A stretch of 64,000 nt of DNA from NCBI RefSeq assembly GCF_030028105.1, contig NC_092376.1:30056935-30120934 (forward strand). The letters run 5' to 3'. Both the position numbers and the translations under genes were made by a program. Source of the DNA: Mobula birostris. Lineage: Eukaryota. This document shows, piece after piece, positions 3,221-60,132 of this stretch; position 1 is the first letter of the stretch, and each line of letters opens with the position of its first letter. The notes beneath the pieces were generated by a model. It saw nothing but the letters and a program-made list of their open reading frames with translations, was not told the DNA's origin and made no database searches.

Positions 3221-3356
3221 CTGAGGAAGAAAAACACAGTATTATCAAAATCAGGATCCGTATTTAATTTTTTTTTCATTTGAGAAATCTGAGCATTGCT
3301 GACCAGGCCAACAGTGATTTTCCATCCAAAGTGCTTTTGAACTGAATGTGTTGCTT

Positions 3357-3497
3357 CACAAACATGACAAAATCTGCAGGTGCTGGAAATCCAAAGCAAC
3401 ACACACAAAATGCTGGAGGAATTCAGCAGGCTAGGCAGCATCTATGTAAAAGAATAAATAGTCAATGTTTCAGGCTGAGACCCTTCATCAGTTTGTG
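3357..3497 (-). mobile_element. PLE 3'-end derivative with hammerhead motif
   Basis: Minus strand ctgatgaagggtctcagcctgaaacattgac plus tail; flanked by the direct repeat tgtgttgctt (3347-3356, 3498-3507). Confidence 0.8.
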
Positions 3498-4164
3498 TGT
3501 GTTGCTTTGAAAGCATTGCTTGGCCATTTCAAAGAATAGTTAAGTGTTATATACTCTGGAGTTGAGGTCATCATGTGGCCAGACTGAATAAACACAAACT
3601 ACAGATTTCCCAAAAGGGCATTTTTGATCCAGGTAGACCCTTTTTTCAGCCCAGTCACCATTAGTGAGAGCTTTTAATTCAGCATTAATTTCATTCACTG
3701 AATATGAATTGACCTGTGGGGATCTGAATTCATAGCTCTGGATCAGAAGCTCACTTCTCTTCTAGAACTATTATATAAAGTAAAAGTTCTCCTATTCCCA
3801 AGGTAGAAGCTGGTCTCCTTTAAAGGTAGTGACAGATCGACAGTGTGGATTAACTAAAAATTCTCATGATCACCAGTTTTACAATAAAAGATGGCAGATG
3901 TCCTGAGCAAAGCCCTCATGCTCAGACAGTTCTCTCTGTCGCACTCAAGGCCATATTGACTTTCAACACCCACAGGATCTTTCCAAGTTGCAACAAGTCT
4001 CTGGCTGCATTCCCCAATTGACTGCTGTCAGCTGCATCAGGCCTAGGCACAGTGTTCCCAAAGAACTGACTTTATTTACTTTAAATTTCAGTGGGGAACT
4101 GGTGGTACCATGGGTCCTGGGATTTTCAGGGATTACTGGTTTGCCATGACTGCATCCATGCATC

Positions 4165-9459: not shown

Positions 9460-11125
9460 TATATAGGAAACAGAGCATTGTGTGTGTGTTGTGTGCTACT
9501 TAATATTACGCACAATTAGGGTTGGCAGATATCCATATTGACCAAACAGTCCATTTTAGAACAAGTTCTCCAATTGTTATTGTATGTTTTTCCTGGATCA
9601 TTTTCATTGGAGAAATATGTAAATTGGACAATGTTGAATTGTTTCTGGAGCTACAAATTAACTAGGATTTGAAATGAAGAATATTGCCATCAATATTAAA
9701 AGATCCTCTGGCTAATAATATTGCATCGAAAACTGAAACCTAATCATAAAGTTGGCAAACAACCAGGAGCTAACAAAACCTACGACAATGAAAGAGTCTG
9801 TGTTTAGTATAAATTCATTCACTGTACTAAAAAGAGAATTCAACACCCAGCTTTAATAATAGACATGGAGCTTAATAATAGAGTAAATAAGTTAAGTATC
9901 AGCTCATATCCAGTTCTAGTTACCATGATGTAAGAAGGTTGTCAAGGCCTTGAATAAAATGCAGAGCAGAATCAGAATCAGGTTTAATATTACTGACGTA
10001 TGCCTTGAAATTTGTTTTGCGGCAGCAATATTCAAAACTATAAATTACAGTTAAGAAATATATAAAAACTGAATTAAATAAGTAGTGCAAAAATAGAGCA
10101 GAAGTATCAGGAATAGCTGAAAAACTCCATTGTATGGAGAGACCATGATTATTCTAATTATTCTCAGTGAATGTTGAGCAGAACTGATGAAGCTGTTCAG
10201 AATTCAATAGGACTTTGAAATAGAATCTGTTTCCATTAGAATGAGGGTCAATAAGCAGAGTTAAGATGATTGGCAGAAATTCCGCTAGTGGAAGATTTAG
10301 AAATAAATATTTGTGCAGCAATTTGCTGTGCTCTGGAATGTACCTTGTGAAATGGTGGTGAAAGCAGATTAAATATTAATATTCTCTCAGTAGGAGGAAG
10401 GAGAATAGTTTGAGTGATATAGTTTTCCAACTGCCAATATAGACAGGATGCATGTCAGTACAAGATTAATATTGACATCACGCAACACACCATCAACATT
10501 ATTTTTGAAACAATTTTTCCTTCAACCATGCCTGTGACTTAAGAATGACAAGTAGTGTCTATACTATCCTTAGTCATGCTCTGAGATAGGTTTACTATGA
10601 TAACAAACATCTTTTTATTTATTATCAGTTACTATGTATATATAGATTACAAGATGGAAAACTGCAGTATGCAGAGGAAAGGTCCCAACAAACCAATTGC
10701 ATCATCCATTATGAATAAGGTTCAGGAAGGATCTGCTGCAATAATCTGCACAGACCTGCATGAATCAAGGTTCTACCAGTTGTTAGTTTCTACTGTGTTT
10801 GCTGTTTCAAATACCAGTTTTTATTGAGACTGAAAATTTCCACCAGAAGTACATCTCCTGCTAGTTCCAGATGATATGCACAGAGAGGCATCAGAATGAG
10901 ACTTTAATGAAGCCTAAGTTGTACATGGGCCTTCAAAGTGAAACATTACCAAATCCCACATAACCTTGTGCTACGGTCTACAAATTAAGGAAAATTTGCT
11001 ACAGATAGTATTTGTAGTAGAGAAAAAAAATCCTTGGGGAAATTGTTATTTATCAGTCTTATTTCTTGTTGAGCAAAGTTTCATTTGTAAAGTTCAGAAC
11101 AGGTTTTCAATGTTTAATGGATCTT

Positions 11126-11267
11126 CATAAACAAAATGCTGGAGGAACTCAGCAGGCCAGGCAGTATCTATGGAAAAGAGTACAGTCGACGTTTAGGGCC
11201 GAAATCCTTCAGCAGGACACAGGCGTGTGTTGCTCAGATTCCCAGCATCTGCAGATTTTCTCTTGTT
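11126..11267 (-). mobile_element. Mini PLE derivative with inverted tail and 13-bp TSD
   Basis: TSD tttaatggatctt at 11113-11125 and 11268-11280; decayed hammerhead on minus, tail piece on plus. Confidence 0.85.
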
Positions 11268-12595
11268 TTTAATGGATCTTATTTATTTTAAGGAAATTTA
11301 TAAAATACTTCTAACCCATCCTCATTTCTTAATTGATTGATGACACAACTACCCTCTCCCATCCCTCCCCTCCATCTTCCAGTAAGCTGGCCCCCGTACC
11401 CCCAGGATATCTCAGTCTCTCAGCTAAAAATCAACCTGGAACATACTACCCGAGTGGATGGTGGAGGCAGCCTACCCTCACAACAGGTAACAAGTATCAA
11501 TTCAATATTTGCATCACCAAGTTAGAAAAAGCTATGGCCCAAGCATGGGCAATTAGGATTGGTACAGATGGGATTCTTGATAGTTAACATAGATATGATG
11601 GTTTGAAGGGCCTGATTCCATGTTGTATGACTCTAACTTATATTTGTTCTATGGCCACTGTTGAGACTATGTCTATCAATTTGTGAAAACTAATGATGCA
11701 AAATTGTTTTATTAAATTTTAATAGACCATAAGATATAGCAGCAGAATTAGGCCATTTAGCCCATCGAGCATCCTCCACCATTTCCTCATGGTTGATCGA
11801 TTTCTCTCCCATTTTATTGTGCTAATTGAATGATAAATTTTGTTCCGTATTATCAGAAACAATTCATCAAAGAGTGTTTTGGAATCTCATATGTCCAATA
11901 AGAGAAGAGATGAGATTCAGGTTAAATATTTTATCTGACAGTCACCATCACCAACACTGCAGTAATCCCACAGTATTATCTGACAAGAGTGGGGCTTAAA
12001 TCAATTGTCTGACTCAAGAGACAATGGTAATGTATTGAAACACTCCATACTTTTTATGAAACCTATATATCCATTTTTCACGTCATTTTTGCCATAAGCC
12101 TGCTTTCTCAGGTACTTTTATCTCTGTGACGCTACCACATAACTCAACTAGAAGTTGTCTGAGGTTCTATAAATTCTAAACTTAGCAAAGCAATGCTGTG
12201 TTGATGTCAATTAAAAAAGTAAATCAGACATTGCTGCCAATTTACTTTTCCCCATACTTTGCTAAGTCTTAGCCCAATTTCTCTGTCAACTGTCTTCAAC
12301 AAAACCATTTCATATAAACTAAGGTCAGGGAACAGGAAGCTCAAAAGTTCAGGAATTTCTTAAATTCAGGAATTTATGCTAACTAGAAATGGCTCTATTA
12401 TTACCGAAGAAGGCTAGCAATTATTCCCATAAGCATTCAAATTCATAACTTTCTGCTTGAAGTCTACGTTTTATACTGCACAGTCTTTGGGATGACTTAC
12501 GTCTACTTGTCACATACGTGCCACTGAAACATTCTTGCAAATAGAATAGCATGCTTAATTAAAGAGTATAATTCCCTCCATGTGGCTGTACTCAC

Positions 12596-15296: not shown

Positions 15297-16482
15297 ATGG
15301 AATTGAGTGAGATACCTTGAGATGACACAACTGCACACTACTGAACATACAGACACTGCTGGACCTTAAGGGTAGCTGTCATATTGTCATAGAGGTCAAA
15401 GGGAGGTCAGAAGGCTACCTACTTATGGTGCTGTTCTATCTGATGGTCAACGGTGGAAGAGCGAATATATTTACTGGTTGGGTGTGTGGATATTATTCTT
15501 GATCAGTGGGAGATCATTCCTCCTTGCCTCTTTGTAACTGCCCAGTTTCCTGAGCCTTAAGAGGTCAGGTAGGAATATAGAATTGTTGAATTGAAGTCGA
15601 ACAGCCTCATTGCAATATTTAAATGACCATTGACTTGTTGCCCTTTCAGCATCAAGGGCCAATATCAGATAGAAATGGTCAGGGTTGAAGCAAATTCCGA
15701 TTCTAACCTAAATTAGAGTAGGTTAAAAGAATGACACAACATTACTGTGATGTAATGTTTTATGTTCTATGTTCTAATAAACAGACATGATATTTTGGGC
15801 TGAGACCCTTCATCAGAACAGTCATTAAAACTATAGCCATGGATTCTGTGAACAATACACAGTCTTCCATTATTTTGTAACACTCTTGTAAAAATTGACA
15901 CTTGAATACTATGGTGGTTCAAATTCATAAACAAAAATGTTTGAAGGGTATGCACCAGGTGCTTTCCAAATGCAGTACCAACATAAGGTAGAATAAGTTA
16001 AAGTTTTGGTATTCAGTGGCAAGTAAACACTTCATGCACTCCAACTTTTACAACGTAGGAGGCTGAGGAATACATTATCTTTTTCAGAATGTGTGCAGCT
16101 CCAACAATATTCAAGAACCTCAGCACTAGCCAGGATCAAGTCGTGCAAGGTCAAACTCAATTCCCTGAAGTATTTTTGGAGCTAATCAGCACCAGCTAGG
16201 ACAAACCATGAAAGCTAGGTGTTAACACTCTCTCCACCTGCCTAATTATTCACTCCAGTGCATCCTAGTTAGAACCTACAAGATATGCCACAGTAACTTG
16301 CCAAGTCTTCTGTGATCACCATGGGACCAAATCATCACCAATTACTGTCTTCTCTCCAAGTTACACACCATCCTCAAGCATTAGGGCCACTGTATTAGGG
16401 AGGTGCTATTGCAGAAGAATTAGAGACTTGCTGTTGTGCATTGAAGATGGTACACACTGCAGGGTGTGCTGGTAGTAGGGAA

Positions 16483-17840
16483 TTAGAATCAAGTTTATTA
16501 TCACTGGCATGTGACGTGAAATTTGTTGACTTAGCAGCAGCAGTTCAATGCAATACATAGTCTAGCAGAGAGAGAGAAAAAATAATAATAAATAAAATAA
16601 AACATAATAATAAATAAACAAGTAAATCAATTACATATATTGAATAGATTATTTAAAAATGTGAGAAAACAGAACTACTTTTTAAAAAAGTGAGGTAGCA
16701 TCCAAAGCTTCAAGGTCCATTTAGGAATCAATGACAGCAGGGAAGAAGCTGTTCCTGAATCACTGAGTATGTGCCTTCAGGCTTCTGTATCTCCTACCTG
16801 ATGGTAACAGTAAGAAAAGGGCATGCCCTGGGTGCTGGAGGTCTTTAATAATGGACGCTGCCTTTCTGAAACACCACTCCCCAAAGATGTCCTGGGTACT
16901 TTGTAGACTAGTGCCCAAGATGGAGCTGACTAGATTTACAACCTTCTGCAGCTTCTTTCGGTCCTGTGCAGTAGCCCCTCCATACCAGACAGTGATGCAG
17001 CCTGTCAGAATGCTCCCCACGGTAAAACTATAGAAGTTTTTGAGTGTATTTGTTGACATGCCAAATCTTTTCAAACTCCTAATAAAGTATAGGCTCTGTC
17101 TTGCCTTCTTTATGACTACATCGATATGTTGGGACCAGGTTAGATCCTCAGAGATCTTGAAATCCAGGAACTTGAAGCTGCTCACTCTCTCCACTTCTGA
17201 TCCCTCTATGAGGATTGGTACGTGTGCCTTCGTCTCACCCTTCCTGAAGTCCACAATCAGCTCTTTCGTCTTACTGATGTTAAGTGCCAGGTTGTTGCTG
17301 CAGCACCACTCCACTAGTTGCCATATCTTACTCTTGTACGCCCGCTCATCACCACCTGAGATTCTACCAACAATGGTTGTATCGTCACCAAATTTGTAGA
17401 TGGTATTTAAGCTGTGCCTAGCCACATAGTCATGTGTATACAGAGAGTAGAGCAGTGGGCTAAGCACACACCCCTGAGGTGTGCCAGTGTTGATTGTCAG
17501 CGAAGAGGATATGTTATCACCAATCCACACAGACTGTGGTCTTCCGGTTAGGAAGTTGAGGATCCCATTATAGAGCGAGGTACAGAGGCCCAGGTTCTGC
17601 AACTTCTCAATCAGAATTGTGGGAATGAGGGTATTAAATGCTGAGCTATAGTCGATGGACAGCATCCTGACATAGGTGTTTGTGTTGTCCAGGTGGTCTA
17701 AAGCCGTGTGAAGAGCCATGAAGACTGCATCTGCTGTTGACCTATTGCACTGATAGGCAAATTGCAATGGATCCAGGTCCTTGCTGAGGCAGGAGTTCAG
17801 TCTAGTCATAACCAACCTCTCAAAGCATTTCATCACTGTC
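16483..17840 (-). mobile_element. Rex1/Babar-type LINE, 5'-truncated RT plus 3' UTR
   Basis: ORF 16760-17965: DPLQFAY, DYSSAFNT, GTPQGCVLSPLLY, KFGDD (catalytic FADD variant), HPGH C-terminus. Confidence 0.88.
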
Positions 17841-18483
17841 GATGAACATTTAAATTTGTGGATCAAGTGTGAGTCAAGGAGGCTGTTTTTTCTTGGATGG
17901 AATTCTAGCCTCTTCAATGTTGTTGGAGCTGCACTCCTCCAGACAAAGGGGAAGTATGTCATCACACTCCTGATTTGTGTTTTGCAGATGTTGGAAGGGC
18001 TGTGGGAGTCAGGAGATTAATCTCTTGCTACAGAATATTGTTTGCGGCAATTCCTGCAAAAAAAAAACTTCCTTTCTTCTAATTGCTTTTATTCTAAAGC
18101 TATAAACAACCTTTTGATGTGCTAAGTCTTTTATTGATTGAAGTTTCCGTGTTATTGACTGAGCTTCAAAAGATAGGTAAATGATTTGTAATATTCCCAG
18201 ATGATCTTTTTCTAAGAGTGGGTTGATCTTGATGTCTGCAGGCTGAGGAATCTGTTGTCCTCTGCAACCAGTTATCAATCTGAACTGGGCAAAGATCACC
18301 AATGGGTACTCCAGCCCAGGGAAGTTGAGAGCTGATCCAAGCTCTACTTACACATACCGCAGACTGAGCCAAAATCACTAGCACAATACCAGTCTATACA
18401 AAACATCTACCCAACTCTTTGGAGATAGGAGGACAAGTGGAACAAGTCTTAGCTTGAACATTTTTTGGAAATGGTGATGTAGA

Positions 18484-19538
18484 CAATCTGTGCGGATTAG
18501 TGATAGCATATCCTCTTCGCTGATGATCAACTCTGGCGCACCTCAGGGATGTGTGCTTAGGCCACTGCTCTACTCTCTATATACACATGACAGTGTGGCT
18601 AGGCATAGCCTAAATACCATCTATAAATTTGCTGACGATACAACCATTGTTGGTAGAATCTCAGGCGGTGATGAGGGGGCGTACACGAGTGAGATTTGCC
18701 AACTAGTGGAGTGGTGCCGCAGCAACGGCCTGGCACTCAATGTCAGTAAGACAAAAGAGCTGATTGTGGACTTCAGGAAGGGTAAGACAAAGGAACACAT
18801 ACCAATCCTCATAGAGGGATCAGAAGTGGAGAGAGTGAGCAGCTTCAGGTTCCTGGGTGCCAAGATCTCTGAGGACCTAACCTGGTCCCAACATATCAAT
18901 GTAGTTATAAAGAAGGCAAGACAGTGGCTATACTTTATTAGGAGTTTGAAGGGATTTGTCATGTTAACAAATACAGTCAAAAACTTCTATAGATGTACCG
19001 TGGAAAGCATTCTGACAGGCTGCACCACTGTCTGGTATAGGGGGTGGGGTGGGGGACTACTGCACAGGACTGAAAGAAGCTGCAGAGGGTTGTAAATTTA
19101 GTCAGCTCCATCTTGGGTACTAGCCTACAAAGTACCCAGGACATCTTTAGGGAGCAGTATTTCCGAAAGGCAGCATCCATTATTAAGGACCTCCAACACC
19201 CAGGGCATGCCCTTTTCTCACTGTTACCATCAGGTAGGTGGATAGAAGCCTGAAGGCACACACTCAGCGATTCAGGAACAGCTTCTTCCCCTCTGCCATC
19301 CGATTCCTAAATGGACATTGAATCTTTGGAAACCACCTCTCTTTTTTAAAAAATATACAGTATTACTGTTTTTGGACACATTTTAACCTATTCAATAAAC
19401 ATAATTGATTTACTTGTTTATTTATTTATTTATTTTTAAATTTTCTCTCTGCTAGATTATGTATTGCATTGAACTACTGCTGCTAAGTTAACAAATTTCA
19501 GGTCACATGCTGGTGATAGTAAACTTGACTCTGATTCT
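18484..19538 (+). mobile_element. Rex1/Babar-type LINE, same family, opposite orientation
   Basis: ORF 18490-19095: GAPQGCVLRPLLY, KFADD; frameshift in a G-run near 19040; gactct/gattct tail. Confidence 0.88.
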
Positions 19539-25769: not shown

Positions 25770-26350
25770 CCTCAAATAACTTTATACCCCAGTATATATA
25801 GGGACTGGGGTGCAAAGTGTTACACATTACAGTACCGTGTAACAGATTTTTGTTGGTTTACAGACTCCCCAACAACCTGTCATTTCTGTGGGTGTGGGGA
25901 GAGAGTGTATCATGTGTATATGGAACGTGAGAGGTTACAGTCTCTGTTTGAATATCTGAAGGGCCTGTTCCTCAAACTTTGGCTGCACTTTAGCCCAGGC
26001 TCCTGATCTTCAGCAACCCCAGTGCAGAGGGGGGAGGTGGGTGGGTCAGTTGAGTGATCTTCCTGGTCACATTGCTCCTGACCTGGCCAAGATGGCCACT
26101 CTGCCTGAGCTGATTACCTGCCTCTCTTGCAGGATTAAGCCCAGGCCCATGCTTCCCTGGAGAATGAGCAGGTGGTATCCATGGGTAGAATGGGGGTTTT
26201 CTGGGATCAGTGGATGCCACAGAGGCTCAAGTGTGCTTTGAATAGAGATTACTGTTCATATTTTGCAATTATTGACTGCAAGCAATGTGAATTGTGAAAA
26301 TACTATAGCACTGTCATGATGTGATGCTTCAATCACTCAATAAACCTCCT
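25770..26350 (+). mobile_element. Tx1/L1-clade LINE ORF2 C-terminal fragment
   Basis: CHFCGCGERVYHVYME..RLQSLFEYLKGLFLKLWLHFSP, a decayed CCHC zinc-knuckle region; aataaa near 26340. Confidence 0.65.
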
Positions 26351-26842
26351 TTTGGAAAAGGACTCACTTTCAAGGAATCTCAATCTCATGTTCTCGATAG
26401 ATATTGCTTATTTGTTTATTATTGTTATTTCTCCTTTTTGTATTTGCACAGTTTGTTATCTCCTGCACTCTGACTGAATGCCCTAGTTGGGCAGTCCTTC
26501 ATTGATTCTGCTATGTTTATTATTCTATAGAGTTATTGTATGCCCACAAAAAATGAATCTCCGGGTTGTATATAGTGACATATATGCACTTTGATAATAA
26601 ATTTACCTTGAACATTTACTTTAGAAAGAAAATGTATCTATAGGGCAATACTAACTGACTACCATTCTGGCAGTAGCTGCAATACACTTGTATTTTTGTT
26701 CTAATTTCAACCAGACTTAAAGTTAAAAAGGATCTAGTGTTTCCCTGGCGTATATGATGCATAAATTCTTCCTGGGATTCCAGCCAGGTACAGGTATCAA
26801 TTTTAACCGACGTTTCAATAACAAACTCCAGCATCTTCATCA

Positions 26843-29800
26843 AAGTTGCTGGTGAAGAGGTGCAGTCGACGTTTCAAGCCGAGACCCTTCGTCAGGACTA
26901 ACTGAAGGAAGAGTGAGTAAGGGATTTGAAAGTTGGAGGGGAAGGGGGAGATCCAAAATGATAGGAGAAGACAGGAGGGGGCGGGATGGAGCCAAGAGCT
27001 GGACATGTGATTGGCAAAAGGGATATGAGAGGATCATGGGACAGGAGGTCCGGGAAGAAAGACAATGGGGGGGGACCCAGAGGACGGGCAAGAGGTATAT
27101 TCAGAGGGACAGAGGGAGAAAAAGGAGAGTGAGAGAAAGAATGTGTGCATAAAAATGAGTAACAGATGGGGTACGAGGGGGAGGTGGGGCCTTAGCGGAA
27201 GTTAGAGAAGTCGATGTTCATGCCATCAGGTTGGAGGCTACCCAGACGGAATATAAGGTGTTGTTCCTCCAACCTGAGTGTGGCTTCATCTTTACAGTAG
27301 AGGAGGCCGTGGATAGACATATCAGAATGGGAATGGGCTACGGAATTAAAATGTGTGGCCACTGGGAGATCCTGCTTTCTCTGGCGGACAGAGCGTAGAT
27401 GTTCAGCAAAGCGGTCTCCCAGTCTGCGTCGGGTCTCACCGATATATAAAAGGCCACATCGGGAGCACCGGACGCAGTATATCACCCCAGTCGACTCACA
27501 GTTGAAGTGTTGCCTCACCTGGAAGGACTGTTTGGGGCCCTGAATGGTGGTAAGGGAGGAAGTGTAAGGGCATGTGTAGCACTTGTTCCGCTTACACGGA
27601 TAAGTGCCAGGAGGGAGATCAGTGGGGAGGGATGGGGGGGACGAATGGACAAGGGAGTTGTGTAGGGAGCGATCCCTGCGGAATGCAGAGGGGGGGGGAG
27701 GGAAAGATGTGCTTAGTGGTGGGATCCCGTTGGAGGTGGCGGAAGTTACGGAGAATAACATGTTGGACCCGGAGGCTGGTGGGGTGGTAGGTGAGGACCA
27801 GGGGAACCCTATTCCTAGTGGGATGGCGGGAGGATGGAGTGAGAGCAGATGTACGTGAAATGGGGGAGATGCGTTTAAGAGCAGAGTTGATAGTGGAGGA
27901 AGGGAAGCCCCTTTCTTTAAAAAAGGAAGACATCTCCCTCGTTCTAGAATGAAAAGCCTCATCCTGAGAGCAGATGCGGCGGAGACGGAGGAATTGCGAG
28001 AAGGGGATGGTGTTTTTGCAAGAGACAGGGTGAGAAGAGGAATAGTCCAGATAGCTGTGAGAGTCAGTAGGCTTATAGTAGACATCAGTGGATAAGCTGT
28101 CTCCAGAAATAGAGACAGAAAGATCTAGAAAGGGGAGGGAGGTGTCGGAAATGGACCAGGTAAACTTGAGGGCAGGGTGAAAGTTGGAGGCAAAGTTAAT
28201 AAAGTCAACGAGTTCTGCATGCGTGCAGGAAGCAGCGCCAATGCCGCCGTCGATGTAGCGAAGGAAAAGTGGGGGACAGATACCAGAGTAGGCACGGAAC
28301 ATAGATTGTTCCACAAACCCAACAAAAAGGCAGGCATAGCTAGGGCCCATACGGGTGCCCATAGCTACACCTTTAGTTTGGAGGAAGTGGGAGGAGCCAA
28401 AGGAGAAATTATTAAGAGTAAGGACTAATTCCGCTAGACGGAGCAGAGTGGTGGTAGAGGGAACTGATTAGGTCTGGAATCCAAAAAGAAGCGTAGAGCT
28501 TTGAGACCTTCCTGATGGGGGATGGAAGTATATAGGGATTGGACATCCATGGTGAAAATAAAGCGGTGGGGGCCAGGGAACTTAAAATCATCGAAAAGTT
28601 TAAGAGCGTGAGAAGTGTCACGAACATAGGTCGGAAGGGATTGAACAAGGGGTGATAGAACTGTGTCGAGGTATGCAGAAACGAGTTCGGTGGGGCAGGT
28701 GCAAGCTGAGACAATAGGTCGGCCAGGACAGGCAGGTTTGTGGATCTTGGGTAGGAGGTAGAAACGGGAAGTGCGGGGTGTGGGAACTATAAGGTTGGTA
28801 GCAGTGGATGGGAGATCCCCTGAGCGGATAAAGTCAGTGATGGTGTGGGAGACAATGGCCTGGTGCTCCTTAGTGGGGTCACGATCGAGGGGTAAATAAG
28901 AGGAGGTATCCGCGAGTTGTCGCTGTGCCTCGGCAAGGTAGAGGTCAGTACGCCAGACTACAACAGCACCCCCCTTATCGGCGGGTTTAATAATAAGGTT
29001 AGGATTAGTGCGGAGGGAGTGGAGAGCAGAGCATTCCGAAGGAGTGAGGTTGGAATGGGGACAAGGTGCGGTGAAGTCGAGACAGTTGATGTCCTGTCGG
29101 CAGTTAGCGATAAAGAGATCCAGAGCAGGCAGAAGACCAGAGCGGGGTGTCCATGAAGAAGAGGAGGGTTGAAGACGGGAGAAGGGGTCATCGGTGGGGG
29201 TGGAAGAGTCCTTGCCGAAGAAGTAGGCTTGGAGACGGAGACGGCGGAAGAAGAGTTCCGCATCATGGTGAACACGGAACTCGCTGAGGTGTGGGCGAAG
29301 GGGGACAAACGTGAGGCCCTTACTGAGAACAGAGCATTCTGCCTCCGACAGTTGAAGGTCGGAGGGGATGGTAAAGACCCGGCACGGATGAGAGCTGGGA
29401 TCAGAGGGGGGAGGGGGGAGGCTGGGGGTGTCAATGGAGAGGGGAGGGTTGGGGTGAGAGGAAGATGGAGCCTCTGAGGGCCCAGGAGTTGACGGTGGGA
29501 TCTGAGGAAGACGGGGCTGCGGAGTGGTGGTGGGAGAAGGGGAGACGGGAGTCACAACAGCAGCACTTGAAGACCCGGCCTGGAGTTCAAGGCTGGCGTC
29601 GCAGTTGGAAGTTGCGCAATCGCTGTGAAGGTGTTCATGGTCGTTGCTGGGGTCCGGGTTTTGAATGTGCCCTGAGGTGTTGGAGCCGGCGAGATCAATG
29701 GCAGGAGCCACAATCTGAAGTTCATGCCTGCTAGCGTCGGGGCCGGCAGGCTCTGGAGTCTGTAGATGTAGGATCTTGCGATCTTTGCCTAACATGACAA

Positions 29801-30003
29801 AGTCAAAAAAACGGCGATTGCAGGCGTGAATCCGACGGAGGACGAAATAACGGGTAGGACCATTACAGACGGCGAAGAAAGTGTCCCGAAGGTGTGGAAG
29901 GGTCTGGGATAGGGACACCAAGTACCTCCTCATGGCGGAGAGAGTCGCCTTTGATGTTTGATGTGTGTTGCTTGAACTTCCAGCATCTGCAGAATTCTTG
30001 TTG
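26843..30003 (-). mobile_element. Penelope-like retroelement (Neptune-like), 5'-truncated and frameshifted
   Basis: RT motifs KPADKGG, LPKIHK, GRPIVS, MDVQSLY, MGTRMGPSYA, YIDG; Cys linker CKRNKCYTC; GIY-YIG VIYCVRCSRCGLLYIGET...R..EH; stop at 27192; 16-bp TSD tccagcatcttcatca at 26827-26842 and 30004-30019. Confidence 0.95.
26864..26899 (-). ncRNA. Minimal type I hammerhead ribozyme in the PLE 3' pseudo-LTR
   Basis: AGUC-CUGACGA-AGG(gucucgg)CUU-GAAA-CG-UC^GACU: stem I AGUC/GACU, intact core, palindromic ACGU stem III. Confidence 0.85.
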
Positions 30004-30599
30004 TCCAGCATCTTCATCAGGGATAATGCCTAGGCACTTCTAGCCCAGTGGTACATATTGTATCGTCAACTCCCATCGTCCGTCCCTCCTGACTGGTCAG
30101 TCCTCAACCAATCAGGTTTCCGCTGTCCCACCTTGTTTAAAATAATATTCCAATTCTTAGTTAGACTGAGACCTTCATATATATTGAGTATATACCACCA
30201 GGCTAGACGTGTCTAAGCATAATTTCTAATGAAGATGGCAGAGTTTGTCATCGAAATGTCAGTTAAATTCAACACCTGTACCTGGCTGAATGCCCCAGAA
30301 GAGTTTATGAGGCTGAAAGTTATACAACAATAAGAACAGAATAAAAAAGGTGGTAGTAGAAAATGGGTAGGCTACTCAGTCCTTCCCCTGCTACTCAATA
30401 TGATCATGACTGATCTAACTTCAGCCTCATCACCTCTTCTGTGGCCACATAGCCCTGAATCCTTTGGATTTTCTTCCAAAAATGAAACTTGTTCCTCTTT
30501 AAATACCTCCAATAATCTAACCTCCATAAGCCTTCAGGATAAATACCATGCCACCAGTTCAGCTTTATCAAAAGTCCAACATAAACTTAGAGGTGTACA

Positions 30600-30930: not shown

Positions 30931-31778
30931 AAGCAAAGCAGCCCACTCACAGAAGAACATTACACAGTACAGTACTTATGAATTATGAATTATTACAGAG
31001 TGCAGAGATTGGGCATGTAAATTGGCAGGCATTATCTGTATATCAATACTTGCCACCACTCAGGACATTGTCAACTTGAATTAGAATGACTTCAGTCAGG
31101 AGATTTGGACTGGTAAATCTAAACAAGCTATACTTGTACTAGGGCCACATGCAAGTGGTAATCTTGTCCAGCTCACCACTAACAGAGACCTAGTATTCTG
31201 CAAGTCCAATCGTCCATCCAAACTGGTTTAACCTTTTAGGCCAATACAAAAATGCAATGTTCCACAGTAGTAACTACACTTTGATTAACAAATTAAAACC
31301 TGTCCATTTGCTCCATGTATCCCAAATTTAAGCTCAATAGCAGTTCCGTACAAATGGATTTCACTATAAACTGGCAAGTAAATTTGTGGCAAATTTTTGT
31401 TAAATTACACAAATGCTGCCTGTATTCAAGGTTATACATATTGCTTTATGGACTAGAAAGCTGATTTAAGGCATATTATCATACCTTTAGCCAATCAGTC
31501 TTATTAGTACACAGCACTTGAATGCTTGCTGCCAATGAAGTCAATACTTCATTTAGTTATGTATACTTTTTCTGGCTCTATTCATTATTAACTCGTAACC
31601 CACACGAAATAAGGTCACCATGGATCAATAAGGACACCATGGGACAATGTGAAAGAGGTCACTCTATTGTGTTCACTGTTATACTAACTTCTGACAGTGA
31701 ATTGTAATGAATGCAGTGGTTCTCAGCCAGTGAATGTGCCGCACTGAAGTGTGATATCATTCAGGTTTGTAATACATC

Positions 31779-33160
31779 TTGTTCAAAAAAGGTAGTAGGG
31801 ATAGTCCGGGTAATTATAGACCAGTGAGCCTTACGTCTGTGGTGGGAAAGCTGTTGGAAAAGATTCTTAGAGATAGGATCTCTGGGCATTTAGAGAATCA
31901 TGGTCTGATCAGGGACAGTCAGCATGGCTTTGTGAAGGGCAGATCGTGTTTAACAAGCCTGATAGAGTTCTTTGAGGAGGTGACCAGGCATATAGATGAG
32001 GGTAGTGCGGTGGATATGATCTATATGGATTTTAGTAAGGCATTTGACAAGGTTCCACACGGTAGGCTTATTCAGAAAGTCAGAAGTTGTGGAATCCAGG
32101 GAAGTTTGGCCAGGTGGATTCAGAATTGGCTTGCCTGCAGAAGGCAGAGGGTCATGGTGGAGGGAGTACATTCAGATTGGAGGATTGTGACTAGTGGTGT
32201 CCCACAAGGATCTGTTCTGGGACCTCTACTTTTCGTGATTTTTATTAATGACCTGGATGTGGGGGTAGAAGGCTGGGATGACACAAAGGTTGGCGGTGTT
32301 GTAGATAGTGTAGAGGATTGTCAAAGATTGCAGAGAGACATTGATAGGATGCAGAAGTGGGCTGAGAAGTGGCAGATGGAGTTTAATCCGGAGAAGTCTG
32401 AGGTGATACACTTTGGAAGGACAAACTCCAAGGCAGAGTATAAAGTAAATGGCAGGATACTTGGTAGTGTGGAGGAGCCAAAGGATCTGGGGGTACATGT
32501 CCACAGATCCCTGAAAGTTGCCTCACAGGTGGATAGGGTAGCTAAGAAAGCTTACGGGGTGTTAGCTTTCATAAGTCGAGGGACAGAGTTTAAGAGTCGC
32601 GATGTAATGATGCAGCTCTATAAAACTCTGGTTAGGCCACACTTGGAGTACTGTGTCCAGTTCTGGTCGCCTCACTATAGGAAGGATGTGGAAGCATTGG
32701 AAAGGGTACAGGGGAGAATTACCAGGATGCTGCCTGGTTTATGATCAGAGATTAAGGGAGCTAGAGCTTTAATCTTTGGAGAGAAGGAGGATGAGAGGAG
32801 ACATGATAGAGGTGTACAAGATAATAAGAGGAATAGATAGAGTGGATAACCAGCGCCTCTTCTCCAGGGCACCACTGCTCAATACAAGGGGACGTGGCCT
32901 TAAGGTAAGGGGTGGGAAGTTCAAGGGGGATATTAGAGGAAGGTTTTTTACTCAGAGAGTGGTTGGTGCGTGGAATACACTGCCTGAGTCAGTGGTGGAG
33001 GCAGATAAACTAGTGAAGTTTAAGAGACTACTAGACAGGCATATGGAGGAATTTAAGGTGGGGGCTTATATGGGAGGCAGGGTTTGAGGGTCGGCACAAC
33101 ATTGTGGGCCGAAGGGCCTGTACTGTGCTGTACTATTCTATGTTCTATGTTCGATGTTCT
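31779..33160 (+). mobile_element. CR1 LINE, 5'-truncated RT plus 3' end
   Basis: PGNYRPVSLTSVVGK, QHGF, DFSKAFDKVPH, GVPQGSVLGP, deletion before DDTK, RPHLEYCVQFWSP; (ttctatg)n tail. Confidence 0.95.
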
Positions 33161-34340: not shown

Positions 34341-35162
34341 GTACGGCACTGTAACTAACAGAAAGCAGGTAATGAAACCATTCCAGTGCAACCACAAAGG
34401 TAACCAAAAGAAATGAGGGATAGGGAGCTAGAGAAGGAAACTGAGGGATCAGGAGTCATATGAATCTCTTTATTTCTCAGTACATTCCAAATACCATCCT
34501 TCAAAATCCCTCCACAATCAAATGGTCATGTTTCCTTGGATCTAGCAAGCTGCATTTGGTTTTGATGAATTTAATAATCCAAGACTGATTTACTTTTACA
34601 GGCTCTCTCACAAGTGGTAAGTGTTGTCAGATAAGAACAAAGAGAACAACATAGAGGGAAGACTGAACAAACATGTGAAGAGGAAAGGGAGAGAACATTG
34701 ACTGGATTGGATAAGTAGGTATGGTTGGCTATGTAAAAAGCACAAAGCAGCTGGACTCTCTTTGCTGTAAATGTTATGAGAAGGAACCAGGGAAGTAGGA
34801 AGCATTCTGATTTTAATGAGAAGAATATATGGTTATGGGTCAGATGAAGTAAAAAAAAATTCTAGCTTGACTTCAGTAAGAATCAAATCCTCCAGATTTA
34901 AGATTGAGGTAAATATTCAAAGGTAAGTAAATAAGCAGCCAGATGCAGCCTGGGTAGAAGTAGCTTTTAAGGAGGCCACATGCCTCCATGATAATGCATT
35001 TTTAGATTTATATTTGACATCAACTGGGCTTCCTGAAACTTTGGAATCTTTGGAATGTGTAAGGAGAGGAACAGAACTGGATCCATAAGCTGGGTGTACT
35101 TACAGAGCCGTTTCTGAACTAGAAGGCACAGGAGTCTACCCAACAGATCCTGTCAAACGCTT

Positions 35163-36385: not shown

Positions 36386-39300
36386 TCAGAATCAGAATCA
36401 GGTTTAATATCACCAGTCTATGTCGTGAAATTTGTTGTCTTTGTGGCAGCAGTACAATGTAATACATAATAATAGAAAAAAATGTGAATTATTGTTATGT
36501 AGTATATATTTTTAAATAGTTAAATTAAATACATAGTGCAAAAGTTGAAATAAAGTATGATGTAGGTAGTGTTCATGGGTTCAATGTTCATTCAGAAATC
36601 GGATGGCAGAGGGGAAGAAATTGTTCCTGAATCGCTGAGAGTGTGCCTTCAGGCTTCTGTACCTCCTTCCTGATGGTAGCAGTGAGAACAAGGCATGACC
36701 TGGGTGATGGGGGTCCTTAATGAGGAATGCTGCCTTTTTGAGGCACCTGTCACATCCACGGATTCAGCAGCGCAGTAGAAACAGCAATTGCGCTTGTGAA
36801 TATGCACATGTCAGCTAATCATTATTTTATCATGCTAGTACTTAACTCCACACTTGGAGTTGTAGTGCTTGTCGAGACTTGGACACAGCACAACACTTTG
36901 CTGCCTGTTTGCATTCAGCCTTGCCTGAGAAACTGGACTGTCGAATCAACTAACTCTGAAGTCTAGCGGTATTCGTTTAATGTTTAGTTGTTCTTTTCAG
37001 CCACAGTGTAGGCTCCATCTTTCCATGAGAGTTTTAGTTAGCAGCCCTGTTTGGCCCAGAGTTTATTATCTTCTTTCCCCTTTAACACTGTAAATATTAA
37101 AGTCTGTAAACTATCGACCCACTTCAGTGTCTCTCACTCCGCACTTGGGCCATATCTGAACATGCTGACAGCAAGTCTCGATCGACACAAAGATGGACCC
37201 AGCAGAGAGAGAGCAGCTGACCTTGGCTGTCAGATTCACTGGTCAGGTAGGAGACAATCTACAGGCAATGGAATCTGTTCTCAGTGAAGTTACAGAGGCA
37301 ATGACACAGATAATCTCATACCAACAAGCCCAGTCTCACTTGGAGCAACAGGTATCGTCCCTAGCCGCGACTGTTCATCAGCTCACCGCAGACAATCGGA
37401 CTCAAGTGTCCGGACCACAGCTGAGTCCCTCATTCGGAACGGAGTATTCCACCTCCAGGCAGATATTCTGGTGATGCCAGTGGATGCATAATTTTATTAT
37501 CCAATGTGAGCTAACATTCCAAGCCCAGCCTGGTCGTTTTGGTGATGATGTGCGAAAGCTGGTGTACATGGTCAATCTTCTTGATGGACCTCCATCAGCC
37601 TGTTCAATGCTTTACGGGAGCAAGGATACCCCGCAGCCCAGTTGTTCTGACATTTCGTGATGGAGTTAAGGAGGGTTTTTGTTCTTCCAGTACGGGGTCA
37701 GGAGGCTGCCCACCAACTCTTGGAGCTGCACCAAGGCAGAGGAACGGTGAGAGCCTATGCAGTTAGATTCCGTACCACTGCAGTAGAGATGGGTTGGAAT
37801 GAGAAATCTCTCATCACTGCCTTCCAGCGTGGACTGAACACAGGGGTCCTGCATGAGATCGCTGTCCAGGACGAGGAGGATTGTCTGGATGACCTGATTA
37901 ATCTGGCTATCCAAGTTGACGACTAGGTGACTGAGTGGCGCAGGGAAAGAAAGTTTCAATCTTCCTACGCCACCTGATCTCCATCTTTCCTCACCTTCTC
38001 TCCCTCCCGCACCACCCAGCACCCAGACCATGGACACAGAGAAGCCTATGTAAGTGGGGCGCATGCGCCTGTCTCAGAAGGAAAAAGAGCAGCGTTGGAG
38101 GACAGGTTCCTGCCTCTACTGTGGTGATCCAGGCCACTTCGGGGCGGCACGTTCCAGGCGTCCAGTAAAAGAGAATACCCAACAGCAGGGAGGGGAATCC
38201 TGATGGGTCGGTTCTCTCTTCAGTCAGCTTCCCCTGATTCTGTAATGCTCATAGCTTCCTTGTCACGGAGGTCTCAGACCCATGAACTTAAGGTGTTTAT
38301 TGACTCTGGTGCAGTTGGGAATCTTATGGACATCTCTCTCACTCAAAGATGGGGAGTTCCAACTCAGGAATTAAGAGAAAAGATCAATATCAAGGTGCTG
38401 GACGGTCAACTTCTGGAAACCGGCCAGATTCACCTTTCCACCCAACCCCTCCAACTGGTGCTTGAAGGCGACCACCATGAAGAAATATCTTTCTGTCTGT
38501 TTAATCCACCTGAACTGCCTCTGGTACTTGGTCTACCCTGGTTATTCCGACATAACCCATGGATCAATTGGTCTCTGAAGGTACTCCAAGAGTGGGGACC
38601 GGCATGCTCGTCTACCTGTCTGGGTCCAGCTCAAGCTCCATCCCATGAATCCCCCTCCTGTGTCAGTTAAGGATGTGGACCTGTCTGGGATTCCAGCTGA
38701 ATATACGGATCTCCTTGACGTTTTCAGTAAAAGGAACTGTGGCCATGAAGGAAGACATCAAGGAGGCATTAAGCATGGGGTTTATCCGTCCGTCAACCTC
38801 ACTGGCAGGAGCAGGCTTCTTTTTTGTGAGCAAGAAAGATGGCAAGCTCCATCCTTGCATCGATTATCCGCCCCTGGACAACACACTGTGAAGAGCCGCT
38901 ACCCTCTTCTCTTGCTGGCGTCTCTGTTTGAACATCTCCAGGGAGCAACCATATTTTCCAAAATTGATCTGCTCAATGCTTACAATCTGATTCGCATAAG
39001 AAAAGGGGATGAGTGGCCATTATGACTGGTGATGCCTTTTGGTCTGGCCAAGGCCCTCGCTGTATTCCAGGCCTTGGTTAACGAGGTACTCAGGGACACA
39101 TTGAACCAGTTTGTGTTTGCGTATTTAGGTGACATCCTTATCTATTTTTGGGCTTACTTACTTATCCCATCCGGTGTTCAAATGGACCCTAGTAAAGTTC
39201 AGGCAGCTGTAGAGTAGCCCAAACCGTCTACAGTCAAACAGGTGTGGCGTTTCATGGGGATGGCGAACTTTTATCGCCGCTTCATCTGGAATTTCGGCTC

Positions 39301-41170
39301 TACCGCGGCTCCAGTTAGTGCACTCACCTCAGCAGGATTCCATTGGACGGACAATGCCAACCAAGCATTTTCAGAGCTAAAGCGACGTTTCACCACTGCC
39401 CTGCTGCTGCAACACCCAGAACCATCTCAGCCATTCATCGTCGAGGCGGATGCATCCGATGTAGGCGTTGGAGCTGTCCTCTCTCAGCGCTCATCGGCAG
39501 TTAGCCGGCTGCACCCTTGTGTCTTTCTTTATCGTCGCTTGACTCCGGCTGAGAGGAATTATGATGTTGGGAACCGGGAGCTTCTAGCTGTCACGGACTC
39601 TAGCACTCATGGTTCAACATGTGTTCAGGCTCCATGGTTTTCCTCAAGACACAGTGTCTGATTGTGGACCACAGTTCACTTCCCGCTTTTGGAAGGCTTT
39701 CTGCTGCTCTGTAGGAGCCACTGCCAGCATCTCATCCAGGTTCCACCCCCAATCTAATGGCCAGACTGACAGAGTGGACTAGGAATTGGAGACAACCATG
39801 TGCTGTCTTGCCTCTTCCAACCCCATATCCTGGAGCTCCCAACTGGTTTGGGCAGAGATCTTCCACAATAACCTCCAGCCGTCCTCCACTGGTATGTCTC
39901 CCTTTAAACGCCAGAAGGGATTCCAGACCCCACCCTTCCCTGATCAGGAAATTGACGTAGGAGTTTCTGCTGCTGAACAGCTGATCCAGCGCTACAAGTG
40001 TACCTGGAGACGAGCCAGGGCTTCTCTGCTGCGTGCCCAGAAACAGCATTCCCGGCAGGCTGATCAGCTCCATCGACAGGTAAGGCCATTCAAACCAGGA
40101 GAGGAGGCCTGGTTGGCGTCAAAGGATCTTCCCCTGAAAGTCAAAAGCTGGAAATTGGCACTGCGCTACGTGGGACTGTTTGTAGTGGAAAAGTTTGTCA
40201 ACAAGGTGTCCTATAGATTGCGTCTACCAGTATCACTGAAGATCCACCTAGTATTCCATGTTTCCCAGCTCAAGCCTGTTACTACCTCTGCATGGGCCTC
40301 ACTCATCCCACCTCCCCCTCCTCCCTGCCTGGTAGATGGTTCCCTTGTCTATACTGTGCGGTGCCTCCTGGCATCTCGCCGGGTACATGGTAAGGCTCAG
40401 TACCTTGTGAACTGGGAAGGGTATGGTCCAGAAGAACATACTTGGATCCCGGAGAAGAACATGTTGGACAGGTTGCTGATCCGGGACTTCCAGCAGACAC
40501 AGGTCTGTGGCGCCCCAGGGGCTGCGCCTAGAGGGTGGGGGGGGCCTGTCACATCCACGGATCGGCAGCGCAGTAGGAACGGCAATTACTCTTGTGAATA
40601 TGCATGTGTCAGCTAATTATTATTTCATTGTGATAGTATTTAACTCCATACTTGTCATCATAGTGCTTGTCGAGACTTGGAAACGGCACAGCAATGCTTT
40701 GCTGCCAGTTTGCATTCGGTCTTGCCTGAGAAATTGGATTGTCAAGGTAATTGACTCTGAAGACTAGCGGTATTCGTTTTATATTTTAGTTGTTCTTTTC
40801 AGCTGCAGTGTAAGCTTCATTTTTCCATTTGAGAGTTTTAGTTAGCGGCCCTGTTTGGCCTAGTGTTTATTGTTTTCTTTCCCCTTTAACACGGTTGGCA
40901 TTAAAGTCTGTGAACTATCGACCCACTTCAGTGTTTCTCACTCCGCACTTGGGCCATATCTGAACCGGGTGACAGCATCTCTTCGTGAAGATGCCCTGGA
41001 TACTACGGAGTCTAGTGCTCATGATGAAGCTGACTAAGTTACAACTCTCTGCAGCTTTTTTCAATCCTGTGCAGCAGCAACCCCTCCCCACCCCCATACC
41101 AGCCAGTTAGAAAGCTCCCCGCGGTACATCTGTAGATATTTGCAAGTGCCTTTGGTAACGTACCAAATTT
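36386..41170 (-). mobile_element. Rex1/Babar LINE 3' fragment split by the LTR element (36386-36747 and 40980-41170)
   Basis: Both flanks align collinearly with the LINE at 16483-17100. Confidence 0.8.
36748..40974 (+). mobile_element. Ty3/Gypsy chromovirus LTR retrotransposon (Tf1/sushi-like), degenerate and internally deleted
   Basis: LTRs 36748-37170 and 40547-40974 (TGTCA...TGACA); TSD gcacc/gcatc; PPT 40530-40544; gag from 37193 (MDPA), protease FIDSGA, RT SKIDL..AY / MPFGL / YLGD, RNase [17 protein letters not shown], partial integrase, chromodomain YLVNWEGYGPEEHTW. Confidence 0.95.
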
Positions 41171-46209: not shown

Positions 46210-46530
46210 TCGGGTCTCGCCAATATATAGAAGGCCACATCGGGAGCACCGGACGCAGTATATCCCCCGTCCCCCTCTTCTTTCTCCCTAGGCCTCCTGT
46301 CCCATGATCCTCTCATATCCCTTTTGCCAATCACCTGTCCAGCTCTTGGCTCCATCCCTCCCCCTCCTGTCTTCTCCTATCATTTTGGATCTCCCCCTCC
46401 CACTTTCAAATCTCTTACTAGCTCTTCCTTCAGTTAGTCCTGACGAAGGGTCTCGGCCTGAAACGTCAACTGTACCTCTTCCTAGAGATGCTGCCTGGCC
46501 TGCTGCATTCACCAGCAACTCTGATGTGTG
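46210..46530 (+). mobile_element. PLE fragment with internal inversion and hammerhead (46436-46471)
   Basis: 46210-46264 matches 27430-27483 (GIY-YIG coding, minus sense); 46265-46530 is the 3' end in plus sense. Confidence 0.85.
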
Positions 46531-48811
46531 ATGTTGGGAAATGTCAAATTGGCAGAAAAAAAAATGATTCAAATCATATTACCCTAAGGGTGAGATATTT
46601 CAGAGCTCTGAAATGGAAAGAGATCAGACTGCCCTTAGTGTTAAGGCAACAAAACTACTTGCACAACTGGAATATATAGATTGGTTTTATATCATGCATG
46701 TACTGTAGAAGCACATCATGTGTGCACTTTGGATATTCTGTGAAAAACCCTGTAATAAATTGCACATACTTCGTTTGAGCTCCTTATGTCTCATATGTAT
46801 TGGTCCAAACGCCTCACAAAAGCCATTGATAAAGTTAACTCTTCATAGAATTGTCCATAGGCTATACTGAAGACAAGGACAGGACAGTGCCCAGCAAAAG
46901 CAAAGCAGAGTCGTTCAAGACACTATGACGACATGGCTATACTGGTAGCATGAACCTGAAAAGTTCATGATTAATCACAACAAGTAGCAGGTACAGATTT
47001 GAAAATGACAAGAAGTAGCTCCTGCAAACGCTAAGATAAGCCTAGCACCTGTTGAAGTAGAAACAGTACAGATAACAGGATTTTTTTTAAGCACAAATAC
47101 TGGAAATAGGAAACAAAAAGAGGAAGTACTGTGCAGGTCAGGCAGCACATGTGGAAGGAGAAGCAGAGTTAATGAATTTGTCAACCTGAAACTCTGGCCA
47201 TGTTCTTTCTTCCCTCAGATGCTGCTTGACCTGCTGACTACCTTCAGCATTTTCTGTTTTAATACCATAATCGATAAACTATCCGAGATCGGATACATAA
47301 GAAATCTTGGAAGTTACATCCAAACACAAGAAGCAATCCAATGTACATCTATGGAAATATTTGCAGCGGAAGTAACATTGTCCAAACTGAGGGTATGGGA
47401 AAAAAGATTGGAATAAGGCCACGTGCATGAAGACAGTCTATTCATTGTACTTAAACAATCTTGGTAAGTATACCTGTGGCCCACTAAATTATCATTGTCT
47501 GATTTAAGGAAGTCATAGAAGACTAAAACCATTTCAACTCAGTGCTGGTAACAGCAGAGAGTTACAAGTTTGAGATACAGTATCAGAAGTCGAGAGGGAA
47601 AATTAGAGATCATACAATTGTTTTGAAGAATTTGCTGAGGTGGAGCAATAACACTGATTTTCAATCATGCTCAGTGAGTTACATTTGTGTGTGGACTAAC
47701 TGATGACCATGTTTTGTCTAAGTTACTAAATACAGTTCATTAACTTATAAATGGGTATACTAATTTCACCAATGGAAGTGATTTCTGAAAATTGGAAATG
47801 ATTTTAACAGGAACTGAAAATGAATGACAATTTGAAATACGGACCAATGGCAGAAGCAATAGTAGAAGTTTCATCGTTAAGTTCTTCTCAGAATGCAGGT
47901 TTGCAAAATATAAAGACAACATGAGTGAATGGTAAATTTTGCAGAGATAAAATGTGATTTCAAAGTGATAAACATTGATAGTCAAGACATTTATATAAAT
48001 ATTGATATTGTTGCTGACTGCACCATTATGGTATGGGTAAGTGTAACCAGATGTTTGGGAAGATGCTATTAGTGAGAAGCATATTAAAGTTGAGAACATG
48101 TCCTGGCAAGAATCTTAGAAAAATTAGGACAAATGGGAAATTATCTTCCATAATGCGAAAAAGGCAAGGCTGCTGATTATAGTGGTTGATTATCTGAATA
48201 GACCAAACTGGCTGGGAGGAGAAATGGGCTGAGAGCAATGTGGTTGAATTGGAAAAGTTTATTTAATATGAATATCATGAAGAAGCTTCTGGAACATTAT
48301 GATGGTATGTTGAAGGATTCATACGTGGGCACGAAAGGGCTCCCAGATCATATTGGCACGAAACCAAATGCCTAACTGAGCTCTCTACACCCTGAACACT
48401 CAGATCAAAGTAAAGTCAAACTGGAGCAACATAGCATTTTGGTAAAAGTGTACCAGAATGATAGGGATAGACCTTTCATAATGGTATGTAAGCTAGTGAC
48501 CCAAGTTCAATTCTAACCTTATGTGCAGTGTACAGGATTTGCACATTCACCCTTTGACAATCTGGGTTTGTTTCTCGTGGCTGCTCTGATTTCTTCCCAA
48601 GTGTAAGGAAGTGCTGATAGATTTACTGGCTATTATAAATGCCCCCTTGTGTAGATCAGTGGCAGGTAATCCAGGAGAAGGGAAGAGACAATAGGTTACA
48701 GGGAAATAAGTAAGTGCTTAGAGGCAGCATCAACGCAATGGATCAAATAGCCTTATATGCGGGAAGAAAATCTATGAACAAAATGTATAACTATACCAGT
48801 GGAGCAACAAC

Positions 48812-49018
48812 CAACAAGAGAAGGTCTGCAGATGCTGGAAATCTAAGCAACGCACACACAAAATGCTGGAGGAACTCAGGAGGCCAGGCACCATTGACAG
48901 AGAAGAGTATAGTCAATGTTTTGGGCCAAGAACCTTCATCAAGACTTTTTTTTCCTCCAGTCCTGATGAAGGGTCTCGGCCTGGAATATCAACTGTACTC
49001 TTTTCAATAGATGTTGCC
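48812..49018. mobile_element. Inverted pair of PLE 3' ends with two decayed hammerheads
   Basis: Minus-sense tail plus hammerhead to ~48946, then plus-sense agtcctgatgaagggtctcggcctggaatatcaact. Confidence 0.75.
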
Positions 49019-49144
49019 GGGGAGATGGGAACCAGAGCACCGGAATAGGTAGTGGAGTGGTTGCAGAGAACGATATTGTTAAGCCTACATACAAGGTCAG
49101 GAATTAAAAAGTTGAGCGTGGCTGGACAAATGTTCTGAGCTGCA

Positions 49145-59309: not shown

Positions 59310-59875
59310 CTGCATAAAAGGGTGCAATATCATTAGAATGGTTAAAAATTGCACACAAAGATGCAACTAAATCAGGTGTGTATAAAGTACTTGATAATAA
59401 TGATTGATAAATGGATTTTAAAATGATCAAAATGATATGAACTCCCGTTTGTTAATACGTGGCTGAGCATGTCATACAAACCTCCTCAGGAATAAAACCA
59501 GTTCAGTTATTTGAACAGATACCTGCAAAAATGCACATCTTAATTGAAGACACCTGCTGGAGTGCACAACCATACCTTGAAACAGAATTGTTCAGTTAGG
59601 GAGCACAATAAAAGCCATAATGAGTAGTCAATTGAAAAATAAGTTCAAAGTAAATTCTGCAAGTTGAAAGTAAATCCTATAAGTTCAATGTAAATTATCA
59701 AAGTACATACAGTATACAGTATGTCGCTATACACTACCTTGATACTCTTTTTCTAGTGGGCATTCAAAGTAGAACAAAGTAGTACAAAAGAACCAGTGAC
59801 AAACTGCACACTCTTCTCTCACTGCTGCCATCAGGAAGAAGGTACAGGAGCTACCAGGTTCAGGAACAGTTAGTA

Positions 59876-60132
59876 AACACAAAATAATCTGCAGATGCTG
59901 GGATCAAAGCAACACTTACAGTACGCTGGAGGAACTCAGCAGGTCCGGCAGCATCAGTGGAAACGATGAGTCGACATTTCGGGCCGGAACCCTTCGCCAG
60001 GACTGAAGAATGAAGGAGGGGGAAGGATTTGAAGAATGCTTGTCGGTTCGGTTGAAAGACCAGTAATTTGAAAAGACAAAGGGGTGGGGGAGGGGAACCA
60101 TCGACGTCATAGGACGTTAGTAGATGAAGGAA
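59876..60132 (-). mobile_element. PLE 3'-end copy (subfamily variant) nested in a Rex-type fragment, 15-bp TSD
   Basis: TSD caggaacagttagta at 59861-59875 and 60133-60147; hammerhead-like gtcctggcgaagggttccggcccgaaatgtcgac. Confidence 0.85.

Follow-up and report, generated by a model that had tools for sequence, protein, structure and literature searches.

Judged from its sequence features, the insertion at 26827-30019 (copy A) of the 64,000-nt stretch of DNA analysed here (the window) is a broken Neptune-type Penelope-like element (PLE). Its body is without the tail, and a 47-nt tail lies inverted at the opposite end. The tail-less body and the inverted tail were probably (roughly 60%) produced by twin priming, with a 10-nt match between target and tail being a coincidence that predates the cut and was not used for priming. 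Most likely, a single RNA served as template for copying from both of the cut DNA strands, as known for LINE-1. On current evidence this is an ordinary insertion, with one coincidence left unexplained. The insertion is laid out as follows:

26827-26842, plus strand: left TSD copy, 16 nt, an exact direct repeat
26843-29956, minus strand: 5'-truncated element body, whose 3' end stops at the tail start
29957-30003, plus strand: inverted tail, opposite to the body and starting where the 3' end of the body stops
30004-30019, plus strand: right TSD copy, 16 nt, an exact direct repeat identical to the left one

Tail, TSD and inverted structure are all seen in copy A, in keeping with PLEs as a group (a tail that may be present at one end, a tandem or inverted arrangement, a TSD); in the portion of the PLE literature available to us (PMC8557442), the tail is described as optional and as lying at either end, and inverted pLTRs are described as well. 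The internal junction between body and tail carries a 7-nt tandem repeat at 29950-29963. In addition, 29 nt of the pLTR are absent from the body near 26853/26854. This missing piece is flanked by 3-nt repeats, lies 11 nt off the 3' junction, and includes an 8-nt complement of the tail word that is matched in the TSD.

The coding part of copy A, which is 5'-truncated and frameshifted twice, and its pLTR contain the following:

28434-29956, minus strand: ORF piece with the N-terminal part up to the reverse transcriptase (RT), with the DKG motif (ORF translation)
27619-28467, minus strand: ORF piece with the RT core and thumb (ORF translation, protein relatives)
27192-28124, minus strand: ORF piece with a CX4CxxC linker and the GIY-YIG endonuclease (ORF translation, Pfam PF01541)
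26870-26895, minus strand: minimal hammerhead-like core of the pLTR (recognised by its motif, with 0 Rfam matches)

An RT followed by a C-terminal GIY-YIG endonuclease thus extends across three overlapping minus-strand ORF pieces, as in endonuclease-bearing (EN+) PLEs, and the frame of the first piece stays open to 30029, across the inverted tail. The closest named relatives of the RT core and thumb piece were found to be shark proteins (67-70% identity), which makes a cartilaginous fish the probable host. The GIY-YIG domain was matched by Pfam PF01541 at an E-value of 2.3e-4 and 21.8 bits, slightly below the cut-off of 22.6, and a Pfam search of the two upstream pieces gave no RT match; among relatives of the protein, PF00078 is present, and PF01541 is present in some. 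The clade was read from domain features. The linker between RT and endonuclease is CX4CxxC, which falls within the CX2-5CxxC finger that marks Neptune and Nematis PLEs and that Poseidon is without, according to the accessible text of PMC8557442. Assignment to the Penelope/Poseidon clade, defined by having no linker zinc finger, was rejected because of this linker. A scan against Rfam for hammerheads gave 0 matches; the core at 26870-26895 rests on motif reading and its cleavage is putative, minimal hammerheads being a described variant in PLEs in what could be consulted of PMC4209133.

The window contains eleven pLTR-related pieces. Two of these are central to the comparison with copy A:

3343-3521, minus strand: old short copy (copy B), with the full tail and pLTR at 3357-3491 and an inverted tail piece at 3492-3497 or 3492-3507 (sequence comparison)
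11113-11280, minus strand: copy C, a tail-less pLTR piece with an inverted tail (about 11225-11267) and a 13-nt TSD (sequence comparison)

The layout of copy C is that of copy A. Twin priming is suggested because, in both, the body ends at the tail start and the tail is inverted at the other end. Copy A further shows opposite-oriented pieces between TSDs and a 5-nt in-register microhomology at the internally primed end, as is typical of twin priming. Across the window, the tail ended 8-16 nt beyond one common anchor in all eight copies examined, and the three tail-less ends (copies A and C, and the one at 46529) all fall at the tail start. This clustering matches two fixed RT starts.

In the proposed course of events, the endonuclease would have nicked the hammerhead-bearing host repeat with a stagger of 16 nt. 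The minus-strand end would then have started reverse transcription at the end of the tail, with pairing of at most 1 nt as judged from the junction. The plus-strand end, whose junction is observed directly, would have annealed over 5 nt to the loop where the tail starts, and from there 3.1 kb of body would have been copied. The tail copy stops within 2 nt of this second start, and the two cDNAs would have been joined at the 7-nt repeat. Two RNA molecules serving as templates (dual priming) would yield the same layout; that the copied tail, in copies A and C, stops where the body starts favours one RNA, without proving it.

Other pieces of the family were also noted. The copy at 46210-46529 is tail-less and has an inverted piece of the endonuclease region at its 5' end, a classical L1-like twin-priming layout; a search for its TSD found none. 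The pLTR pieces at 48813-49021 and 47122-47257 belong to older copies and lie head-to-head inverted, without a clear TSD. ORF remnants of other retroelements, named by eye from their translations, occur at 16760-19095, 31773-32744 and 38128-40616, and comprise two LINE-type RT pieces, a CR1-like RT, and LTR-type protease and integrase-end pieces.

The sequence-only reading had drawn attention to a likeness between the target and the tail of copy A, and the likeness itself is there. The first 10 nt of the 16-nt TSD stand unchanged in the tail of the element itself (at 29979-29988), and the last 5 nt of the TSD (26838-26842) are those that follow the 3' junction in related copies. The window contains the 10-nt word 6 times, where 0.22 would be expected, with 2 occurrences in the TSD and 4 in tails, three of the latter belonging to related copies. 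Among 116,568 masked 16-mers on both strands, a 10-nt match to the 50-nt tail of copy A was found in 120 (0.001), and a 10-nt match to the complete pLTR in 334 (0.003).

The two matches differ in their position relative to priming. The 5-nt match stands in the priming register. The 10-nt match at 26827 is 25 nt off register, and copying began 15 nt 3' of it on the RNA, so that it is not the priming duplex, although the inverted tail was primed by the strand to which the match is complementary. A predicted fold of the closest complete pLTR places the 5-nt site in a loop, 0.99 unpaired, and the 10-nt word was predicted to be only 0.27-0.31 unpaired, in a stem. Such accessibility is weak evidence, because the pLTR was found to fold no better than shuffled sequences (z of -1.28 to 0.29). 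The sister arm of the host repeat already has 7 of the 10 bases of the tail word, indicating that the host site is tail-like by nature. From the sequences compared, the 10-nt likeness is best read as a rare coincidence on an already tail-like host site, one that probably predates the cut and probably played no part in priming.

The earlier proposal that the RNA tail pairs with target DNA therefore survives in part. Pairing would have taken place at priming junctions, over 5 nt in register at 26838-26842 and over up to 12 nt at 3498-3509 if the TSD of copy B is 10 nt long. Such pairing is the known pattern of twin priming and is not evidence of guided targeting. No published link between inverted PLE tails and twin priming was found by title or by the start of abstracts, and we do not claim that it is absent from print.

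Copy B had been reported to be flanked by a 10-nt tail word as well. The word is present at 3347-3356 and at 3498-3507, but the right-hand one may be an inverted tail piece. The flanks 3343-3356 and 3508-3521 are identical at 11 of 14 positions and offer an alternative, longer TSD; a single CpG that decayed in opposite directions would explain two of the three differences, and copy B has 0 CpG left compared with 5 and 6 in younger copies. An adjacent tandem of this quality was found at 27 of 58,118 background positions, or at 228 of 57,966 when any length of 10-20 nt is allowed. For these reasons the TSD of copy B is ambiguous, either 10 nt or a decayed 14 nt as read from the sequence. If it is 10 nt, the minus-strand end would have paired with 12 nt of the tail (3498-3509) in register and left a 6-nt inverted piece, which is textbook twin priming. 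If it is 14 nt, the right-hand word would belong to an inverted tail piece of 16 nt, leaving a secure match of only 7 nt (background 0.059). Neither reading clearly shows out-of-register guidance. A second copy of the repeat around 3357 was not found within the 64,000 nt.

Two TSDs, at 35150 and 59861, had been conceded to be without a tail match. This caveat holds and grows: 4 of the 6 TSDs (11113, 35150, 59861 and a tentative one at 5370) match the tail over 6 nt or less. The TSD at 59861-59875, which belongs to the copy at 59876-60132, contains a 7-nt word that recurs 10 nt inside the 5' end of that copy (60116-60147). In the flanks of the three TSD-less copies, all six sites had matches of 5-6 nt (background 0.24-0.71). 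The background values of the TSDs were 0.001 for copy A, 0.0009 or 0.059 for copy B, 0.95 for copy C, and 0.6, 0.65 and 0.072 for the remaining three. Combined over the six TSDs by Fisher's method, these give p = 0.0004 with copy B taken as 10 nt and p = 0.008 with copy B taken as 7 nt; the combined value is a lead and not a result, because the test was picked after the match had been seen and many windows were scanned. The copies at 47122-47257 and 15789-15819, whose ends are unclear, were excluded from these tests. One match of the kind in copy A (0.001-0.003 per site) is expected among 6-9 sites with a probability of 0.6-2.7%. This rarity and the combined p weigh against the coincidence reading.

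For RNA-guided insertion, an excess of targets complementary to a fixed RNA segment in a fixed register would be expected. Among the sites compared, 2 of the 6 TSDs match, at differing tail positions, and none of the 6 other flanks does. Sequencing data added one further candidate. In runs X1, X5 and X7, a contig joint connects the end of a very high-copy repeat (26586-26601) to a tail-less element end (26838) with 7 extra letters, and its target side carries an 8-nt tail-loop word in the same orientation as in copies A and B (background 1,253 of 58,284, or 2%). This joint could be an insertion hotspot or a single amplified composite (one row). The tally for site choice by tail match is one clear case (copy A), one ambiguous case (copy B) and the candidate joint, against four negative TSDs.

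A rather unlikely alternative is that pairing assists capture: after the nick, a 3' overhang complementary to the tail would pair with the RNA and favour completion or the inverted-tail outcome, with copying starting out of register. A long match is present in 2 of 3 inverted-tail copies (A and B) versus 0 of 3 plain copies with a TSD, on the same strand, and the combined p over the six TSDs and the word at the contig joint, as a third hint, fit this idea. In copies A and B alike, the inverted piece was primed by the strand complementary to the tail, a point that speaks against coincidence. A precedent is provided by endonuclease-less PLEs, which attach to telomere overhangs via complementary repeats (PMC8557442, as far as its text was available). 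However, copy C has an inverted tail without a match, copy B is ambiguous, and the 10-nt word is mostly paired in the predicted RNA. A 10-nt 3'-terminal duplex would moreover be expected to extend in register, which it did not, and the anole PLE was reported, in the part of PMC11167929 at hand, to start reverse transcription at non-homologous sites.

Protein recognition, in which the GIY-YIG endonuclease prefers tail-like DNA without any RNA-DNA pairing, is highly doubtful. The copy A target and a family tail variant are alike at 15 of 17 nt, 4 of them outside the TSD, and the Drosophila virilis Penelope endonuclease needed tail sequence for recognition (as reported in PMC11167929, consulted in part). 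On the other hand, the matched words of copies A and B sit at different tail positions with nick positions that share no register, most targets are not tail-like, and the anole protein cuts AT-rich ATT sites according to the same portion of PMC11167929. A fixed endonuclease motif as the main cause was rejected, because the registers differ between copies A and B.

The host repeat is laid out as follows:

26718-26842: left arm of the palindromic host repeat, which belongs to a family of high copy number in each of the four sequencing runs aligned
30020-30309: rest of the host palindrome, consisting of inner arms, spacer and sister arm (sequence comparison)

The repeat is palindromic and high-copy, has a hammerhead-like core in each arm, and may have arisen from another PLE family as a non-autonomous element; a second copy of the host family was looked for within the window and not found. 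Insertion A falls in the hammerhead-like stem II and core of the left arm. The sister arm (30229-30309) is 79% identical to the left arm, and the divergence of the arms noted earlier was borne out, with 17 differences in 81 nt (21%), including three adjacent ones at 26829-26831. Also as noted, the predicted stem-II hairpin is kept by the sister arm only and was not folded by the TSD-bearing arm.

From this divergence it had been suggested that the tail may even overwrite its target. Overwriting by the insertion of copy A is unlikely, as both TSD copies carry the tail-like bases. When a cut is staggered, the original plus strand survives in the left TSD and the original minus strand in the right one; since the bases are found on both, they must predate the cut. 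One-step rewriting was rejected on this logic, a single insertion being unable to change both original strands. Rewriting in two steps is very unlikely indeed. An earlier, abortive nick would have allowed in-register priming via the shared 5 nt, with a few bases copied and fixed like a prime edit, and the site would later have been recut for insertion of the element. Consistent with such a history, the three changed bases are the tail's exact letters, are flanked by 5 nt and 2 nt common to the tail, and break the stem II that the sister arm keeps. Ordinary decay would hardly yield three neighbouring substitutions that all lead toward the tail, which also speaks against coincidence. However, two events at one site are required, and the arms differ at 21% of sites in any case.

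Contigs from 4 of 19 sequencing runs were aligned to 26300-26868, where they did not bridge the TSD; stretches without coverage carry no weight. In run X1, the mean depth of host-family contigs was at least 5,900 over 26817-26831 and at most 2,050 over 26832-26842. This drop looks as if most family copies differ or branch at the site, and is compatible with rewriting. Against it, no G-to-C difference of at least 5% was present in the stretch in 3 of 4 runs among the differences listed, so the state of the sister arm is not established as that of the family; the letters at 26829-26831 are absent among the differences listed for the four runs. A likely orthologous contig of organism D, with 14 differences in 146, aligns to its last base, 26829, and weakly suggests the reference base there. 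An orthologous contig of organism B matched 26586-26802 without a difference and ends there. Separately, two likely orthologous organism D contigs in run X12 overlap by 19 nt at 26684-26702, and each continues into unlike sequence, as though another insertion with a duplication of 19 nt were present. Pattern searches with the tail gave 5 matches in metagenome contigs, none with BLAST similarity to the element or the host repeat; searches with the host repeat gave 7 matches in named prokaryotic genomes, which were judged by title to be chance hits, and 0 in viral contigs.

A broader proposal is that the tail of EN+ PLEs acts as a loose guide, with out-of-register pairing to the nicked strand biasing insertion or tail inversion to tail-like sites, and with abortive in-register copying able to leave prime-edit-like changes in host DNA. 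We regard this as decidedly unlikely. If out-of-register matches proved to be enriched genome-wide, they would indicate that a telomerase-related RT chooses its targets with the help of RNA, which would be of interest for gene-insertion tools.

How does copy A compare with known systems? How PLEs complete insertion, and why the tail sits at one end, is still an open problem. Comparisons below are limited to the portions of the cited papers that were available. Neptune and Nematis PLEs share with copy A the order of RT, CX2-5CxxC linker and GIY-YIG domain with cysteines between its two motifs, the DKG motif, the minimal-hammerhead pLTR, the optional tail at one end, an inverted 5' piece and a TSD (PMC8557442). 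Copy A differs in being 5'-truncated, with two frameshifts and a pLTR that is short of 29 nt, and in that its inverted piece is the tail alone.

In the anole Poseidon element PAc, two RT starts were observed in vitro to bracket the tail, the upstream one in a stem-loop, with both target strands nicked and extended; initiation needs no homology (PMC11167929). The two start regions match the ends of copy A. PAc belongs to another clade, without the linker finger, whereas copy A has a 5-nt in-register match at one start, and the inverted-tail layout is not derived from two starts in that part of PMC11167929. In LINE-1, an inverted 5' poly(A) tail with a tail-less body was explained by twin priming (PMC2837659). 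As in copy A, the tail comes from one nick and the body from the other via internal annealing, with the TSD kept and microhomology at the junction; unlike in LINE-1, the tail of copy A is a defined 47 nt with a fixed inner boundary and not poly(A), and the enzyme is another. The layout of copy A is accounted for when the two-start data on PAc and L1 twin priming are taken together.

The endonuclease-less Athena and Coprina PLEs, in which RNA is complementary to a 3' DNA overhang, are the precedent for the tail-pairing idea (PMC8557442). Their pairing involves telomeric repeats in register and no endonuclease, whereas the long match of copy A lies outside the priming register and most copies have none. 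Overall, the split-tail layout connects the pair of RT starts seen in vitro with twin priming, in a second PLE clade.
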